Origin: Escherichia coli
Lineage (GTDB): Bacteria > Pseudomonadota > Gammaproteobacteria > Enterobacterales > Enterobacteriaceae
Strand: one strand, 5' to 3'
Assembly: GCF_030384885.1 (NCBI RefSeq)
Contig: NZ_CP128613.1
Length of the DNA: 64,000 bases
Shown here: piece after piece, positions 1 to 40,476 of the stretch
How positions within the stretch are numbered: position 1 is the first letter of the stretch
How the letters are laid out: each line of letters opens with the position of its first letter
Notes under the pieces: generated by a model
Seen by the model: only the letters and a program-made list of their open reading frames with translations
Told to the model about the DNA's origin: nothing
The model's database searches: none
Program-made: the position numbers and the translations under genes

Positions 1-994
1 GCACCGTTCCGGCGATCAGCTGAAAATCACTGCTCACCTGGCGATCGCTACCAAACGGGTAAAAGGTTTTCTCTTCAATGGCTTTTAGCAACATTGCCTG
101 TTCGTCTGCGCCCAGTTCGCCAATCTCATCAAGAAACAACATGCCGCCGTTGGCACTGCGTAATAATCCTTCACGAGATTCCCGCGCCCCGGTAAACGCG
201 CCTTTTACATGACCAAACAGCGTCGACATGGCGGTATCACCGCGCAGGGTGGCGCAGTTCACTTCCACAAACGCGCCGCTAAACTGATGCCGCGCCTGTT
301 TTAACTCGAAGATGCGTCGTGCCAGAAACGACTTTCCCGCACCGGTCGGGCCGTTAAGCAGGATCGGTGCGCGGGATTTGATCGCCACTTTTTCGATCTG
401 CTCAATCATGCGGTTGAAGTGGGCGTTACGCGTGGCAATGCCGGATTTGAGGAAATCGAGGGTTTGCTGGCGTTCTTCGGCAAAGCGGCTGGCGATGGCG
501 TTATAACGGCTTAAATCGAGATCGATAATCGTCACTTCACCTGCGCCGCGCGGTTGTTCTTTTTTGCGCGGTGGTGAAGATTGTATCAACCGGGCGGGCA
601 AGTAACGCGCTTCTGCCAGCAGAAACCAGCAAATCTGCGCGACGTGGGTACCGGTGGTGATGTGAATTAAATAGTCTTCTTTATCAGGTTCGAACGCGTA
701 ACCACGGGCGAAATCATGCAGGCAGGCGTAAACCTCCTCGAAATCCCACGGGTTATGCAGTTCAATCTCAACGCTCACCACTTCTGTTTCTGGCGAAACA
801 TTGGCGATATCGCGTTTAAGCGTTTCAAACAGCGAGCGTGAGCGGGCGTCGTGCAACAATTCCAGTCGATTGATGACTAACGATTCTTGCTGGCATAGAC
901 AGAGTGACGGACGCCATTTCGACCATCGCTGACTGCCGCGCCCGGCATAATCCAGTACGGTGCCGACAAAGCCAAAAGCCACTGTTTTACGCAT
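1..994 (-). CDS. rtcR: Sigma-54-dependent transcriptional activator RtcR, N-terminal part only; the 3' end of the gene lies beyond the window start
   Basis: Reverse-strand translation from ATG (complement of 992-994) reads MRKTVAFGFVGTVLDYAGRGSQRW..., matching remembered RtcR; divergent from rtcBA with a sigma-54 promoter between them. The track ORF 312-506(+) is antisense to it. Confidence 0.85.
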   Translation of the reverse strand, partial: MRKTVAFGFVGTVLDYAGRGSQRWSKWRPSLCLCQQESLVINRLELLHDARSRSLFETLKRDIANVSPETEVVSVEIELHNPWDFEEVYACLHDFARGYAFEPDKEDYLIHITTGTHVAQICWFLLAEARYLPARLIQSSPPRKKEQPRGAGEVTIIDLDLSRYNAIASRFAEERQQTLDFLKSGIATRNAHFNRMIEQIEKVAIKSRAPILLNGPTGAGKSFLARRIFELKQARHQFSGAFVEVNCATLRGDTAMSTLFGHVKGAFTGARESREGLLRSANGGMLFLDEIGELGADEQAMLLKAIEEKTFYPFGSDRQVSSDFQLIAGTV

Positions 995-1127
995 CTTAGA
1001 TATCCTTATAAAAGACGATATTTCATTATCGGCGAATTGGCTTTGCGGGAAATCTCCGCTTACGGACGTAAAGATTTAATCTATTAAAAACAATGAATTA
1101 AAAAATTAAGCTGCTTATTTAATTTTC

Positions 1128-1143
1128 TGGCACGACGGTTGCA
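1128..1143 (+). promoter_or_regulatory. Sigma-54 (-24/-12) promoter for rtcBA
   Basis: TGGCAC-gacgg-TTGCA is a perfect match to the TGGCAC-N5-TTGCW consensus, about 40 bp upstream of the rtcB ATG. Confidence 0.8.
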
Positions 1144-1181
1144 ATTATCAGGACAGCAAACAACGAAAAGAGAAAAACAAA

Positions 1182-2408
1182 ATGAATTACGAATTACTGA
1201 CCACTGAAAATGCCCCGGTAAAAATGTGGACCAAAGGCGTGCCGGTAGAGGCCGATGCGCGTCAGCAACTTATTAATACGGCGAAGATGCCGTTTATTTT
1301 CAAACATATTGCGGTAATGCCGGATGTACACCTGGGTAAAGGTTCCACCATTGGTAGCGTGATCCCAACCAAAGGAGCGATTATTCCGGCGGCGGTGGGG
1401 GTAGATATCGGTTGTGGAATGAACGCACTGCGAACTGCGTTAACGGCGGCTGACCTGCCTGAAAACCTGGCGGAGCTGCGTCAGGCGATTGAAACTGCCG
1501 TGCCGCACGGACGTTCCAATAATCGTAGCCGTCGTGATAAAGGCGCATGGGAGCATCCGCCTGTTAACGTCGATGCTAAATGGGCCGAGCTGGAAGCTGG
1601 TTATCAGTGGTTAACGCAAAAATATCCGCGTTTCCTTAACACTAATAACTATAAACATCTGGGAACGCTGGGAACGGGTAACCACTTTATTGAAATCTGC
1701 CTTGATGAGTCGGACCAGGTGTGGATTATGCTGCACTCCGGTTCACGCGGAATTGGTAATGCCATCGGGACTTACTTTATCGATCTGGCACAAAAAGAGA
1801 TGCAGGAAACGCTTGAAACGTTGCCATCGCGTGACCTGGCGTACTTTATGGAAGGTACGGAATACTTTGATGATTACCTGAAAGCGGTGGCCTGGGCGCA
1901 GCTTTTTGCCAGCCTTAACCGCGATGCGATGATGGAAAATGTGGTAACGGCGTTGCAGAGCGTTACGCAGAAAACGGTAAGACAGCCACAAACGCTGGCG
2001 ATGGAAGAGATCAACTGTCACCACAACTATGTGCAAAAAGAACAGCACTTTGGCGAAGAGATCTATGTGACGCGTAAAGGCGCGGTGTCTGCGCGTGCTG
2101 GTCAATATGGAATTATTCCCGGTTCGATGGGGGCGAAAAGCTTTATTGTCCGTGGGCTGGGAAATGAAGAGTCGTTCTGTTCGTGCAGCCACGGTGCCGG
2201 GCGGGTAATGAGCCGTACTAAAGCGAAAAAACTGTTCAGCGTGGAAGATCAAATTCGTGCCACCGCGCATGTGGAATGCCGTAAAGATGCCGAAGTGATC
2301 GACGAAATCCCGATGGCGTATAAAGATATCGACGCGGTGATGGCGGCACAAAGCGATCTGGTGGAAGTTATCTACACCCTGCGTCAGGTGGTGTGTGTAA
2401 AAGGATAA
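1182..2408 (+). CDS. rtcB: RNA-splicing ligase RtcB
   Basis: 408 aa ORF; MNYELLTTENAPVKMWTKGVPVEADARQQL... matches remembered RtcB. Confidence 0.95.
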   Translation: MNYELLTTENAPVKMWTKGVPVEADARQQLINTAKMPFIFKHIAVMPDVHLGKGSTIGSVIPTKGAIIPAAVGVDIGCGMNALRTALTAADLPENLAELRQAIETAVPHGRSNNRSRRDKGAWEHPPVNVDAKWAELEAGYQWLTQKYPRFLNTNNYKHLGTLGTGNHFIEICLDESDQVWIMLHSGSRGIGNAIGTYFIDLAQKEMQETLETLPSRDLAYFMEGTEYFDDYLKAVAWAQLFASLNRDAMMENVVTALQSVTQKTVRQPQTLAMEEINCHHNYVQKEQHFGEEIYVTRKGAVSARAGQYGIIPGSMGAKSFIVRGLGNEESFCSCSHGAGRVMSRTKAKKLFSVEDQIRATAHVECRKDAEVIDEIPMAYKDIDAVMAAQSDLVEVIYTLRQVVCVKG

Positions 2409-3428
<1,020 letters not shown>

Positions 3429-3470
3429 TATAAAGATGTAAGCCGGAACCGACGTATTATCCGGCTAAAC

Positions 3471-6182
<2,712 letters not shown>

Positions 6183-29384: not shown

Positions 29385-31109
29385 ATGGATAACGTTGAAC
29401 TTTCACCCGCAACACGCTGGGGGATGATTGTTACCGGATTACTTCAGGGTCTAGTTTGCTACCTACTGATCGCCTGGCTTTCCGGAAAAAATCACAGTTG
29501 GATTGTTTATGGCGTGCCTGCGACCGTCGCGTTTTCATCCGTTTTACTCTTCTCCGTGATCTCCTTTAAACAGAAGCGCCTTTGGGGATGGCTGGCGCTG
29601 GTGTTTATTGCCACGCTGGGAATGAGCGGCTGGCTGAAGTGGCAAACTGATGGCATGAACCCCTGGAGAGCTGAAAAGGCGCTTTGGGATTTTGGTTGCT
29701 ATCTGCTGCTGATGGCAATGTTGTTGCTACCGTGGATACAACAAAGCCTTCGCATCCGCAATGACAGTAGCCGCTATCGCTATTTTTACCAGTCAGTATG
29801 GCATAACGTACTTATATTACTGGTGATTTTTCTCGCCAATGGCCTGACGTGGCTGGTACTTTTACTGTGGGGCGAGTTGTTTAAACTTGTTGGCATCACG
29901 TTTTTCAAAACGCTCTTTTTTGCAACCGACTGGTTTATTTATCTCACGTTAGGTCTGGTTACCGCACTGGCGGTGATCCTCGCGCGTACACAGTCACGTT
30001 TAATCGACTCTATTCAAAAGTTGTTCACGTTAATCGCCACGGGGTTGCTGCCGTTAGTATCATTGCTAACCCTGATGTTTATCATCACCCTGCCGTTTAC
30101 GGGCCTGAGCGCGATTTCTCGCCACATCTCCGCCGCCGGGTTGCTGTTGACGCTGGCCTTTTTGCAATTGATTTTAATGGCTATTGTCCGCAATCCGCAA
30201 AAAGCGTCACTTCCCTGGACGGGGCCGTTGCGTTGCCTGATTAAAACCGCTCTGCTGGCTGCTCCGCTGTATGTGTTCGTCGCCGCCTGGGCGTTATGGC
30301 TGCGGGTCGCTCAGTACGGCTGGACTGTCGACCGCTTGCAGGGCGCGCTGGCGGTGCTGGTGTTACTGATATGGTCGCTGGGGTATTTTGTCAGTATCGT
30401 CTGGCGTAAAGGGCAAAACCCTCTTGTTCTTCAGGGCAAAGTGAACCTTGCGGTTTCGTTATTGGTGTTGGTAATACTGGTGCTTCTTAATTCGCCGGTG
30501 CTGGATAGTATGCGCATTAGTGTGAACAGTCATATGGCACGTTATCAGAGCGGCAAGAACACGCCAGATCAGGTAAGTCTCTACATGCTCGAACAGAACG
30601 GTCGCTATGGACGTGCGGCGCTTGAGTCGCTGAAAAGCGATGCCGAGTATATGAAAGACCCGAAACGCGCACGGGATCTGCTGATGACGTTAGATGGAGA
30701 GCAACATCTTCAGGAACAGGTATCGGAAAAAGTATTAGCCGAAAATGTGTTAATTGCCCCAGGCTCTGGCAAACCGGATACGGCATTCTGGTCGGCCTTA
30801 ATCCAGGATCGCTATAACGTGATGACCTGTATTGAAAAAGACGCCTGCGTACTGGTCGAGCAAGATCTGAATAGTGATGGTCAGGTGGAGCGGATCCTGT
30901 TTGCTTTTAATGATGACAGAGTCATTGTCTATGGCTTTGACCCGGCCAGAAAAGAATGGGACGCGCTTGATATGAGTTTACTTCCGCGCCAAATAACGAA
31001 AGAAAAATTACTCGCTGCTGCGAAGGATGGAAAACTGGGGACGAAGCCTAAAGCATGGTGTGATCTGACGGTAGATGGTGAAACGCTGGAAATAAACCTA
31101 AGTAAGTGA
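29385..31109 (+). CDS. yhgE: Inner membrane protein YhgE
   Basis: 574 aa polytopic ORF; [32 protein letters not shown]... Confidence 0.88.
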
Positions 31110-31177
31110 CAATGCGTATTTGATTTTTTATCGGATACGACGCTTTATCTTACCAACAATAACTTGCGAATTATTGC

Positions 31178-31206
31178 GTAGGCCTGGTAAGCGCAGCGCA
31201 TCAGGC
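31178..31206. repeat. REP element between yhgE and hslO
   Basis: Reverse complement reads GCCTGATGCGCTGCGCTTACCAGGCCTAC, REP-like; a second hairpin TCCGGCAGAG...CTGCCGGA follows at about 31222-31245. Confidence 0.6.
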
Positions 31207-31253
31207 CATTACGTCGTAAAATCCGGCAGAGCACTCTCTGCCGGACATACTCA

Positions 31254-32132
31254 TTAATGAACTTGCGGATCTGCCGGAGACGCGTTGTTGCGGATTTCAG
31301 CAATATCCATCGCATTGAACAGATAGTGGTTACCGCAGTAATCACAATGCATGTCAATTTCGCCTTCTTCCGCCAGAATGCTATCCACTTCTTCATCCGG
31401 CAGTGTTTTTAGCGCGTCGGCGCAACGTTCACGCGAACAGGTGCATTTGAACTCCACATCCTGCGGATCGTAAACCGTCACCTCTTCTTCGTGATACAAA
31501 CGCCACAACACTTCGTTTGCCGGTAAGGTCAGCAGTTCTTCGGTTTTGATGGTTTCGGTTAGCGTTGCCAGGTGGTCAAAGTCGTCCTGCTGGGCATTTT
31601 GCGCAGGCATTACCTGCAACAACATACCGCCTGCAGCCGGTTTGCCGTCTACGTCGCCGGTGCGAATAAACAGGCGCGTCGGCAGCTGTTCAGAACGCAT
31701 AAAGTAATCTTCCAGGCAGGCCGCCAGGGTATCACCTTCCAGACCCACCACGCCCTGATAGCGTTCACCTTCGCTCGGGGTGATGGTGATCACCACGTAA
31801 CCATTGCCCACTAGCGTTTTCAGGTCGGCATTTTCCGGAATTTCGCCCTGTACGCGCGCGACGCCACGCATCTGCTGTTTGTTGTTTCCGTTGATGACCG
31901 CCAGACTCATCGGGCCGTCGCCTTGCAGCTGTACGGTGATATCACCATCAAATTTTAGCGTAGCGGTTAACAGGCTGGTCGCAACCAGCAGTTCTGCCAG
32001 CACGTTTTTAACGGGCTGCGGATAATCGTGATTCTCAAGGATCTGTTGCAGGGTTTCCGAAACGGTTACCAGTTCGCCGCGTACGGCAAAGTTTTCAAAC
32101 AGATAGCGATGTAATTGGTCATGTTGCGGCAT
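31254..32132 (-). CDS. hslO: Redox-regulated chaperone Hsp33
   Basis: Recognised protein begins [24 protein letters not shown]... (292 aa), with C-terminal zinc-centre cysteines CTCSRERC...CDYCG; the track ORF has 2 extra N-terminal codons. Confidence 0.93.
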
Positions 32133-32156
32133 AATCATCTCTCTTGCAGGTGACAG

Positions 32157-32558
32157 TTATTCACTGTCGCCATGTTTAAATCGTAACAGGTCGCGGCGCT
32201 CTTTTTTGTCCGGGCGTCGGTCCGGGTGCGGCATGGTTAAGGCATTAAGTTTACGTGCCAGCGCCATTTTTTCGCGTTTCTCTACACTTTCTGCAGTCTC
32301 TTCATACAGCAAGACTGCCTCGCTGGCGGGGCGACGCTGTTCAGTAATCGCCTTTACAATCACCGTTCGTTCGTCATTTCCCTGGCGCAGAGTGAGCGTG
32401 GCATTCAGCTCGACGATTTTGCTTGGCTTGCTGCGCTGCCCGTTGTAGTGCACCTTACCGCCTTCGATCATTTCGCGGGCCAGCGCGCGGGTTTTATAAA
32501 AACGGGCGGCCCATAGCCATTTATCCAGTCGAACCTCAACAGCAGGTTTTTCTTTCAT
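32157..32558 (-). CDS. hslR: Ribosome-associated heat shock protein Hsp15
   Basis: 133 aa; MKEKPAVEVRLDKWLWAARFYKTRALAREMIEGGKVHYNGQRSKPSK..., S4 domain. Confidence 0.93.
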   Translation of the reverse strand: MKEKPAVEVRLDKWLWAARFYKTRALAREMIEGGKVHYNGQRSKPSKIVELNATLTLRQGNDERTVIVKAITEQRRPASEAVLLYEETAESVEKREKMALARKLNALTMPHPDRRPDKKERRDLLRFKHGDSE

Positions 32559-32568
32559 GGCGTCTCCT

Positions 32569-33237
32569 TCACATTAGCGAGGGGATCAGGCGGCGGTAGT
32601 CATTCAGTGACGGATGGTGCTGATACTGTTTCTCGGCAATCCCGGAGTCAGGATTAGTCACGCCGAGGCAGTAACGAATACCAAATTGTGCGGCAGCATC
32701 GAGAATCGCTTCGCTGTCATCAATAAACAGCGTTCTTTCAGCTTTCAGACCCGTAGCTTCGGCCACCGCATGCCATAACCGCTGATCCTCTTTCGGATAA
32801 CCAAATGTGTGGGTGGAAAGTAATAAATCAAGGTGTGCGTCCAGACCGGTATGCTCAAGTTTTACCGCCAGGTTATGCGGATGAGCATTGGTGAGCAAAA
32901 TTCGCTGCTTACCACTGGCTTTCAGTGCCTCAAGAAACGGAATGGTATCTTCACGCAGTACGGCACGCGGTCCCATCTCGGTGGTCATCGCACAGATATC
33001 CAGACCCAGTTGCTCACTCCAGTAATCAAGACAGTACCAGTTTAGCGTATGCTGCACGTCGTGATATTGCTGGCGCATATAGTCCATCGCTTCCTGTGGT
33101 GTGACCCCGTTTTTCGCCCCCCATGTTTCAGGCACCAGCTTTTGCCAGAAATAGTTATCGAAGGCGAGGTCGAGCAACGTGCCGTCCATATCCAGCAGAA
33201 CGGTATCTACGTCCTGCCAGGCAATGTTGATATGCAT
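32569..33237 (-). CDS. yrfG: HAD-family GMP/IMP nucleotidase YrfG
   Basis: Recognised protein begins MHINIAWQDVDTVLLDMDGTLLD... (222 aa) with the HAD DxDGT motif; the track ORF starts 15 codons upstream. Confidence 0.88.
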   Translation of the reverse strand: MHINIAWQDVDTVLLDMDGTLLDLAFDNYFWQKLVPETWGAKNGVTPQEAMDYMRQQYHDVQHTLNWYCLDYWSEQLGLDICAMTTEMGPRAVLREDTIPFLEALKASGKQRILLTNAHPHNLAVKLEHTGLDAHLDLLLSTHTFGYPKEDQRLWHAVAEATGLKAERTLFIDDSEAILDAAAQFGIRYCLGVTNPDSGIAEKQYQHHPSLNDYRRLIPSLM

Positions 33238-39937: not shown

Positions 39938-40476
39938 TGAACCCGCCAATTAATTTTTTGCCCTGGCGACAGCAACGCCGGACCGCTTTTCTTCGTTTCT
40001 GGTTGCTGATGTTCGTTGCGCCTCTGCTGCTGACCGTCGGGATAACGCTAATATTGCGTCTGACAAGCAACGCCGAAGCTCGCGTAGATGCCGTTTTGCT
40101 TCAGGCGGAACAACAACTCGCCCACAGCTTACAAATAACGAAACCACGTTTGCTGGAGCGCCAACAAATTCGTGAGCAGCGTTTGCAAAGGCAGCGCCAG
40201 CGACAATTTACCCGTGACTGGCAATCTGCGCTGGAAGCACTGGCGGCGCTTTTACCCGAGCACGCCTGGCTGACAACGATAAGCTGGCAGCAGGGAACGC
40301 TGGAGATCAAGGGGCTAACAACAAGCATTACCGCGTTAAACGCGCTGGAAACGTCACTCCGCCAGGATGCTTCTTTTCATCTCAATCAGCGGGGGGCCAC
40401 GCAGCAGGATGCGCAGGGACGCTGGCAATTTGAGTATCTGTTAACAAGGAAGGTTAGCGATGGACATGCTCTTTGA
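39937..40476 (+). CDS. hofN: HofN (PilN-like)
   Basis: MNPPINFLPWRQQRRTAFLRFWLLMF... (179 aa); ATGA overlap with the hofM stop. Confidence 0.88.
   Translation: MNPPINFLPWRQQRRTAFLRFWLLMFVAPLLLTVGITLILRLTSNAEARVDAVLLQAEQQLAHSLQITKPRLLERQQIREQRLQRQRQRQFTRDWQSALEALAALLPEHAWLTTISWQQGTLEIKGLTTSITALNALETSLRQDASFHLNQRGATQQDAQGRWQFEYLLTRKVSDGHAL

Follow-up and report, generated by a model that had tools for sequence, protein, structure and literature searches.

The rtcR-rtcBA locus and its divergent control region

Positions 1-3428 of the 64-kb stretch of E. coli DNA analysed here (the window) almost certainly carry the rtcR/rtcBA RNA-repair module, with its divergent control region at 995-1181; apart from the caveats noted below, no observation speaks against this reading. 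RtcB and RtcA mend broken tRNA and rRNA and affect tolerance to ribosome-targeting antibiotics. The RefSeq annotation of the identical genome region lists rtcR, rtcB, rtcA and malT. The intergenic region measures 187 bp and is bounded by the rtcR and rtcB start codons; indeed, the span 994-1182 singled out by the first-pass annotation runs between two divergent ATGs, that of rtcR at complement(992-994) and that of rtcB at 1182-1184. The features to which we refer below are the following.

1..994, minus strand: rtcR, first 331 of 532 codons, with the remainder beyond the window edge
1000-1031, no strand assigned: candidate RtcR enhancer (UAS), a cluster of GATA/TATC half-sites, proposed from comparative evidence
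1088-1108, plus strand: candidate IHF-type bending site, from a consensus scan and conserved spacing
1127-1143, plus strand: sigma-54 promoter CTGGCACGACGGTTGCA, with GG 1129-1130 at -25/-24 and GC 1141-1142 at -13/-12
1154-1181, plus strand: predicted start C1154 and 28-nt A-rich rtcB 5' UTR, placed by the motif centre + 19 and by ApC plus ATP priming
1182-2408, plus strand: rtcB, RNA 3'-phosphate/2',3'-cyclic-phosphate ligase, 408 aa, intact (PF01139)
2409-3428, plus strand: rtcA, RNA 3'-terminal phosphate cyclase (PF01137, RTC, and PF05189, RTC_insert)

The divergent sigma-54 activator had been named as RtcR, and the minus-strand fragment at 2-994 bears this out with Pfam matches to RtcR/CARF (PF06956, residues 2-185, E 2.4e-85) and to Sigma54_activat (PF00158, residues 187-330, profile positions 2-141 of 168, E 1.3e-40). 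It was likewise rightly stated that only the N-terminal sensor and AAA+ parts lie in the window, rtcR being cut after codon 331; since the Sigma54_activat match stops at profile position 141 of 168, the AAA+ domain is itself truncated here, and in the full RtcR of the matching genome PF00158 spans residues 187-354. The fragment nevertheless includes both the Walker A motif GPTGAGKS (aa 215-222) and, at aa 265-270, the GAFTGA loop; its sequence agrees fully with the N-terminal part of the NZ_CP027579.1 RtcR and to 97% with K-12. The NZ_CP027579.1 protein is full length (532 aa) and 97% identical to K-12 RtcR, and in its C-terminus (residues 443-532) no Pfam HTH model matched at E <= 0.01. According to published accounts, RtcR is kept inactive through its N-terminal CARF domain, whose ligands include tRNA fragments with a 2',3'-cyclic phosphate end, and activation of the E. 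coli protein also involves RtcA and RtcB.

Integrity of rtcB and rtcA

Downstream of the control region, RtcB covers its whole Pfam profile (positions 1-426 of 426, E 8.5e-134), is 98% identical to K-12 and retains the metal-binding residues and the nucleophilic His337 (D75, C78, H168, H185, H281 and H337). Immediately after its stop codon, rtcA begins, with 339 aa when read from the ATG at 2409; RefSeq and K-12 use the next ATG, at 2412, which gives 338 aa. RtcA matches PF01137 (E 6.7e-79) and PF05189 (E 1.6e-13), is 97% identical to K-12 and keeps the adenylylated histidine (H308 in K-12 numbering) of AHPSCH. A pattern search of 3380-3520 found no intrinsic terminator after rtcA.

One could conceivably argue that this strain is losing the module, with rtcB a pseudogene and the promoter a relic, given that NZ_CP027579.1 annotates rtcB as frameshifted and that the intergenic region is missing altogether from 571 of 5426 E. 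coli genomes. We regard this as very unlikely. The annotated frameshift comes down to 1397-1401, where the window reads GGGGG and the RefSeq record GGGG, and it is the GGGGG reading that yields the full 408-aa open reading frame. A one-base homopolymer difference of this kind is a typical assembly error. Moreover, the rtcB of the window has the complete profile match and catalytic residues described above, and the rest of the module (rtcR, rtcA, promoter and UTR) is intact as well.

A sigma-54 promoter directs rtcBA

The element claimed by the first-pass annotation, a perfect TGGCAC-N5-TTGCA, can be read directly on the plus strand as TGGCAC (1128-1133), GACGG (1134-1138) and TTGCA (1139-1143), and its end lies 38 nt from the ATG at 1182, in keeping with the stated distance of about 40 bp upstream of rtcB. 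The wider element CTGGCACGACGGTTGCA (1127-1143) fits the extended consensus YTGGCACG-N4-TTGCW, holds GG and GC one helical turn apart and points to rtcB. An exact TGGCAC-N5-TTGCA occurs once in the 64 kb, both strands considered, and dinucleotide shuffles return the exact pattern 0.09 times on average, with at least one match in 8 of 100. Because the exact motif is thus by itself only mildly improbable, the weight of the argument rests on its position and orientation before rtcB.

The same arrangement recurs far beyond E. coli. Among 80 RtcR loci compared from other bacteria, 79 had enough upstream sequence, and 75 of these, from Enterobacteria to Myxococcota, Acidobacteriota and Verrucomicrobiota, keep the divergent rtcR/sigma-54 promoter layout, in which an equivalent -24/-12 element is separated from the rtcR start by 78-202 nt, in most cases by about 120-185 nt; motif counts given below are over 75 loci. 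In the window, 1087-1215, comprising the promoter and the 5' UTR, equals K-12 MG1655 base for base. In K-12, rtcBA induction is reported to be abolished by deletion of rpoN or by point mutations in GG/GC. A K-12 sigma-54 ChIP-seq peak, OS35 (FAT 17), holds exactly CTGGCACGACGGTTGCA and is assigned to rtcB, and EcoCyc lists it as an experimentally confirmed promoter (PMC4591121).

Could the match nonetheless be fortuitous or non-productive, with rtcBA transcribed from an intergenic sigma-70 promoter? With one mismatch allowed, the -24/-12 pattern occurs in the window at chance frequency (2 matches versus 1.99 expected), many E. coli sigma-54 sites are intragenic and non-productive (PMC4591121), and the native rtcBA promoter, although it conforms to the consensus, is reported to be “very weak in vitro” (PMC9650030). 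However, a consensus scan of 900-1300 on both strands found no sigma-70-like promoter for either rtcR or rtcB, the exact and correctly oriented element before rtcB has its equivalents in the comparison loci, sigma-54 occupies the identical K-12 site in vivo (PMC4591121), and reporter activity depends on RtcR (PMC5175333). We consider such a sigma-70 origin to be exceedingly improbable, and the sigma-54 interpretation of the first-pass annotation is supported.

The transcription start is predicted at C1154, that is, at the motif centre + 19, a rule that in the ChIP-seq paper (PMC4591121) likewise delivers a predicted rather than a mapped start. In vitro, the native rtcBA promoter is primed at -1/+1 by the dinucleotide ApC, followed by ATP (PMC9650030), which fits A1153-C1154-A1155 and places GC at -13/-12 and GG at -25/-24. 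The predicted C1154 thus agrees with the ApC priming, and nothing in this start-site evidence is at odds with the element.

The resulting leader contains a purine-rich ribosome-binding stretch, AAAGAGA, at about 1167-1173, and an ACA at 1177-1179 that is a reported MazF cleavage site (PMC5416887). A leader RNA or riboswitch between promoter and rtcB was considered and rejected, the leader being 28 nt long and folding no better than shuffles (z = 0.48); an Rfam search of 900-1400 gave no match at E <= 1. A direct repeat, AAAAACAATGAATTA at 1086-1100 and AAACAAAATGAATTA at 1175-1189, was regarded as coincidental, a two-copy match within A-rich DNA.

A candidate RtcR enhancer and IHF-type site

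Counted from the start site, the interval 1000-1031 upstream of the promoter covers -154 to -123, and it is separated from the rtcR start codon by only 6-37 nt. It comprises a TATC at 1001-1004, the sequence TTATAAAAGACGATAT at 1006-1021, which has two mismatches to TTATC-N6-GATAA, and CGATATTTCATTATCG at 1016-1031, a perfect palindrome CGATA-N6-TATCG that is unique in the window (0.06 expected). A two-mismatch TTATC-N6-GATAA is by itself at chance level, there being 45 such matches in the window. Across the comparison loci, however, TTATC-N6-GATAA is exact in 30 of 75 and present with at most one mismatch in 56 of 75 (0.15 and 0.75, respectively, in shuffles), at the same relative position beside the rtcR start codon. 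The two palindromes overlap in enterics and are 4-5 nt apart elsewhere, and conservation among Escherichia, K. oxytoca and Superficieibacter extends over the block 1003-1031 but not over 1032-1085. The 175-nt region upstream of rtcB (window 1007-1181), which gives RtcR-dependent reporter activity (PMC5175333), takes in nearly all of 1000-1031.

Judging from this comparison, we are inclined, though not strongly, to the view that the RtcR site would consist of TTATC-N6-GATAA followed by CGATa-N6-tATCG, conserved across several phyla, preceding the -24 element by about 120-150 nt and mostly located within 15 nt of the rtcR start, and that 1000-1031 may be its compacted, overlapping version. According to PMC9650030, rtc has both a UAS and an IHF site, the latter being named there “the rtc IHF binding site”; the literature on rtc regulation that we searched for an RtcR motif gives no sequence for it, and a 2016 review (PMC4987338) lists the RtcR enhancer as “NK”, for which reason the candidate represents a small increment.

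A different assignment would place the enhancer at the GC-rich inverted repeat GCGGGAAATCTCCGC (1045-1059, -109 to -95), leaving the GATA/TATC cluster to serve rtcR as a sigma-70 promoter, an operator or a translation start. The repeat does sit at a typical enhancer distance; the cluster overlaps the rtcR ribosome-binding region and might, though this is only a guess, provide a -10-like GATAAT on the rtcR strand (complement(1025-1030)); and in most loci the palindrome keeps a fixed 2-14 nt to the rtcR start. Yet 1045-1059 is disfavoured because it lacks conservation outside Escherichia, K-12 itself already breaking the repeat at 1059, whereas TTATC-N6-GATAA is conserved across phyla. In addition, in four loci with longer spacers (L015, L017, L018 and L050) the distance of the palindrome to the rtcR start grows to 53-79 nt, yet its distance to TGGCAC remains 102-146 nt. 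We thus hold this assignment to be unlikely and retain the GATA/TATC cluster as the candidate enhancer.

Between the candidate enhancer and the promoter, an AT-rich tract of 58 bp (1070-1127) contains a putative IHF-type site. It is formed by AAACAATGAATTA (1088-1100) and AATTAAAAAATTA (1096-1108), which overlap and each deviate from WATCAANNNNTTR at one position; the site has its centre at roughly -55 to -60 and precedes the -24 element by about 28 nt. The IHF consensus is exact in 23 and within one mismatch in 59 of the 75 loci (0.2 and 5.7 in shuffles) and ends 28-29 nt before TGGCAC in 40 of them. From the sequence, its exact placement would be at about 1088-1108.

Proposed mechanism

We propose that sigma-54 RNA polymerase waits as a closed complex on CTGGCACGACGGTTGCA, the opening of DNA requiring contact by the enhancer-binding ATPase RtcR. 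Upon RNA damage, ligands relieve the CARF-mediated repression of RtcR, and active RtcR oligomers would most likely bind the GATA/TATC half-sites at 1000-1031, to be looped onto the polymerase by the IHF-bent AT-rich tract (about 1088-1108). ATP hydrolysis would then produce the open complex and a start at C1154, yielding an rtcB-rtcA mRNA with the 28-nt leader.

Comparison with known systems

The original primer extension on the E. coli K-12 rtcR/rtcBA operon was reportedly performed by Genschik, Drabikowski and Filipowicz in 1998 (J Biol Chem). The K-12 rtc operon (Engl 2016, PMC5175333; Kotta-Loizou 2022, PMC9650030) has the same genes, arranged and oriented alike between glpR and malT. The intergenic region measures 187 bp in the window versus 188 bp in K-12, and its seven differences (1033, 1034, 1059, 1076 and 1081-1086) all fall outside the proposed functional elements, the promoter, the IHF region, 1000-1031 and the 5' UTR being identical. 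The proteins are 97-98% identical, with a variable loop in RtcB at aa 112-117. The host belongs to a deep-branching E. coli lineage, one of 5426 genomes being at least 99% identical. Local recombination was rejected as the source of this divergence: a region 30 kb away likewise has only one genome at least 99% identical, and the divergence is therefore genome-wide.

With the rtcR/rsr-yrlBA-rtcBA locus of Salmonella Typhimurium (PMC7790460, PMC9879122), the window shares the divergent rtcR, the sigma-54 promoter, CARF control and the distal rtcB-rtcA. In Salmonella, as in many other bacteria, the promoter is separated from rtcB by rsr (Ro60) and Y RNAs. Among related RtcR loci, we also observed YrlA copies in those of Superficieibacter, and many loci of beta- and gamma-proteobacteria carry tRNA-like elements. 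The window has none of these: rtcB comes directly after the promoter, and the Rfam search of 900-1400 returned no match.

The classical NifA-nifH, NtrC-glnHp2 and PspF-pspA systems have the three-part layout proposed here, in which an IHF bend lies between a -24/-12 core and activator sites located over 100 bp upstream, and rtcR-rtcBA resembles pspF-pspA in that activator and target are neighbouring, divergently transcribed genes. RtcR differs in its sensor, a CARF domain reading an RNA-damage signal where classical activators have a receiver, GAF or PAS domain, and, unlike in the classical enhancer promoters, the proposed rtc enhancer is found less than 40 nt away from the start codon of the activator gene itself.

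Taken together, the rtcR-rtcBA finding is correct but ordinary, because the locus is a well-studied E. coli RNA-repair operon with a textbook sigma-54 promoter; the presence of the module in E. coli, its promoter and its regulator have been known since 1998, and the window contributes a strain variant only. If the candidate enhancer is real, its location in the rtcR leader suggests that RtcR bound there would also cover its own leader and could autoregulate. The enhancer and IHF sequences proposed from the 75 loci are testable, may guide the design of reporter or titration constructs and may help to define the RtcR regulons of other bacteria.

Gene content and strain variation

Gene assignments over the opening 6.2 kb of the window, checked by Pfam, are as follows.

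994 down to the window edge, minus strand: rtcR, a 331-aa fragment called from its ORF and Pfam
995-1181: rtcR-rtcB intergenic region, 187 bp
1182-2408, plus strand: rtcB, Pfam-supported
2409-3428, plus strand: rtcA, Pfam-supported
3471-6176, minus strand: malT

Positions 994 and 1182 are the start codons of the divergent rtcR and rtcB. In the rtcR fragment, Pfam places the RtcR/CARF domain at residues 2-185 (E 2e-85) and the Sigma-54 interaction domain at residues 187-330, covering profile positions 2-141 of 168; of RtcR, the window thus holds the sensor and a portion of the AAA+ domain and no more, as the first-pass annotation said. The full-length RtcR of the matching genome (L001, 1899-3494, minus strand) matches the CARF, sigma-54 interaction and AAA lid domains, and no HTH model is found at E <= 0.01 in its C-terminal 90 residues (443-532, a part outside the window); the DNA-binding domain appears to be of a divergent type.

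RtcB (whole-profile match, E 8.5e-134) is 98% identical to its K-12 counterpart and keeps D75, C78, H168, H185, H281 and H337; RtcA, with cyclase and insert domains, is 97% identical and keeps the catalytic His; and full RtcR, taken from the matching genome NZ_CP027579.1, has 532 aa and 97% identity. The rtcA and malT stop codons converge on a 42-bp gap (3429-3470) that has ~81% identity to K-12 and holds an AGCCGGA...TCCGGCT inverted repeat; an intrinsic-terminator pattern was not found in this gap.

In a megablast search of 5,426 complete E. coli genomes, the rtc region turns up almost everywhere in the same gene context. Strain 2013C-4282 (NZ_CP027579.1; annotated order glpG / glpR / rtcR / rtcB / rtcA / malT) is one base apart from the window over the region, the difference lying in the G run at 1397-1401, which reads GGGGG in the window, where the rtcB ORF is intact (408 aa), and GGGG in RefSeq, where rtcB is for that reason labelled a frameshifted pseudogene. 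One of the two records probably carries a homopolymer assembly error here. Only one of the 5,426 genomes is >=99% identical at 1-3600 and at 30000-33000, and the rtc region has only ~94-95% identity to K-12; within the genome collection, sequence matching sets the source strain apart as a single deep lineage. The rtcR-rtcB junction (940-1240) is without a match in 571 of the 5,426 genomes, so that the rtc module is not universal in E. coli, and NZ_CM142823.1 matches it solely from 1130 onward, which puts a breakpoint within the -24 element.

The sigma-54 promoter and predicted transcription start

The exact TGGCAC-N5-TTGCA element proposed about 40 bp before rtcB was borne out: TGGCAC-GACGG-TTGCA lies at 1128-1143 on the plus strand, with the ATG 38 nt downstream, and also satisfies the longer consensus YTGGCACG-N4-TTGCW. 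It is the single exact match in 64 kb, against a mean of 0.09 in shuffled sequence (8 of 100 shuffles held at least one). With one mismatch allowed, the window holds 2 matches and 1.99 are expected, so the motif by itself is weak evidence, and it is placement and orientation that decide. The other one-mismatch match, TGGCGCTGCCTTTGCA at 40184-40199 (minus strand), is of chance-level frequency.

Alignment of the intergenic region with K-12 MG1655 shows differences at seven positions only (1033, 1034, 1059, 1076, 1081-1086), and 1087-1215, with promoter and leader, is identical. The K-12 sigma-54 ChIP-seq peak OS35 carries CTGGCACGACGGTTGCA without a change; PMC4591121 attributes the peak to rtcB and gives its EcoCyc status as experimentally confirmed, which supports the reading as a divergent rtcR and sigma-54-dependent rtcBA module. 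The locus is the textbook module in a strain variant, and to that extent the finding is already known.

PMC4591121 predicts the start site as motif centre + 19, here C1154, 28 nt upstream of the ATG. As an independent check, PMC9650030 describes the native rtcBA promoter as primed at -1/+1 with ApC and then extended with ATP, and A1153-C1154-A1155 is the sole ACA downstream of the GC element that fits; the GC pair is then at -13/-12 and the GG pair at -25/-24, and the predicted start is in no conflict with the -24/-12 element. The 28-nt leader is A-rich and unstructured on folding analysis, without an Rfam match (900-1400 searched), and its ACA at 1177-1179 is a reported MazF cleavage site that would yield leaderless rtcB mRNA (PMC5416887).

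Published work has the CARF domain holding RtcR off, RtcR without it being constitutive, and tRNA fragments with 2',3'-cyclic phosphate ends binding this domain in Salmonella and E. coli; in E. coli, activation requires RtcA and RtcB. Once active, RtcR spends ATP on opening the closed sigma-54 complex at 1127-1143, and rtcB-rtcA is transcribed from the predicted start at 1154.

Candidate sites for the RtcR enhancer and IHF

PMC9650030 and PMC5175333 state that RtcR has an upstream activating sequence to which it binds and that an rtc IHF site exists; a 2016 review (PMC4987338) enters the enhancer as not known, and neither sequence is given in the accessible literature. CARF-domain homologues were collected, 15 were aligned, and with that alignment 80 RtcR loci were retrieved from species-representative genomes. 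The divergent strand carries rtcB within 3 kb in 64 of the 80. Of the 79 loci whose upstream sequence was long enough, 75 have, in window orientation, a good -24/-12 element 78-202 nt (mostly ~120-185 nt) from the rtcR start codon; these loci range over Enterobacteria, Pseudomonas, Burkholderia, Rhodocyclales, Myxococcota, Acidobacteriota, Planctomycetota and Verrucomicrobiota.

Among these 75 loci the palindrome TTATC-N6-GATAA occurs exactly in 30 (0.15 in shuffles) and with at most one mismatch in 56 (0.75 in shuffles), usually at a distance of 2-14 nt to the rtcR start and 134-147 nt to TGGCAC, and is followed by a weaker palindrome, cGATa-N6-tATCg. On the strand of the promoter, the IHF consensus WATCAANNNNTTR is exact in 23 (0.2 in shuffles) and within one mismatch in 59 (5.7 in shuffles), ending 28-29 nt upstream of TGGCAC in 40 loci.

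In the window, TTATAAAAGACGATAT (1006-1021) has two mismatches to TTATC-N6-GATAA, which alone is at chance level (45 such matches), and is overlapped by the perfect palindrome CGATATTTCATTATCG (1016-1031), unique in the window with 0.06 expected; an additional TATC half-site stands at 1001-1004. Two overlapping one-mismatch IHF matches (1088-1100 and 1096-1108) lie within a 58-bp AT-rich tract. When the control regions of Escherichia coli, E. albertii, Klebsiella oxytoca and Superficieibacter are aligned, conservation covers 1003-1031, the -24/-12 element and a stretch of the leader; 1032-1085 is not conserved. The latter holds, between proposed enhancer and AT-rich tract, a GC-rich inverted repeat, GCGGGAAATCTCCGC (1045-1059), restricted to Escherichia and, with G at 1059, imperfect in K-12. 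Engl et al. (PMC5175333) used a functional RtcR-dependent reporter that starts 175 nt ahead of the rtcB ATG (window 1007) and so includes nearly the whole proposed enhancer. The first-pass annotation had named 1000-1120 as the interval in which to look for activator sites, and on this comparison of loci we lean, by a modest margin, towards 1000-1031 as the RtcR enhancer; 1088-1108 is a probable IHF site on the same grounds.

With the proposed enhancer 6-37 nt away from the rtcR start codon, bound RtcR could affect its own expression, and we infer that autoregulation through an enhancer in its own leader could occur. A sigma-70 consensus scan of both strands over 900-1300 did not locate the rtcR promoter.

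Downstream of the promoter the window differs from other loci. It lacks the three YrlA (Y RNA-like) copies found between promoter and rtcB in Superficieibacter, the tRNA-like element that many beta- and gamma-proteobacterial loci carry ~150-250 nt past the promoter (with "anticodons" varying among Met, Arg, Cys, Ala and Val), and the sequence conserved directly after the start in other bacteria, ..cgccgacttgcggcaaggccgacggg...

Loci with non-coding RNAs after the promoter
L004 (Superficieibacter): 843-1216
L018: 2575-2648
L031: 2563-2708
L026: 2590-2663
Further loci listed: L023, L015, L012, L014, L025, L008

K. oxytoca (L005) and Superficieibacter share, just past the promoter, a conserved leader, AACGGAA..GGAAA.CA, followed by an ORF that starts ATGGC(T/G)AATC and is not rtcB. 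In K. oxytoca the distance between the rtcR start and rtcB exceeds that of E. coli by only ~134 nt, too short an addition for an rsr gene, and the ORF could be either a remnant or simply a small ORF.

Taken as a whole, what is new at this locus is a small element, a candidate RtcR enhancer with an IHF site, defined from the comparison of 75 loci.
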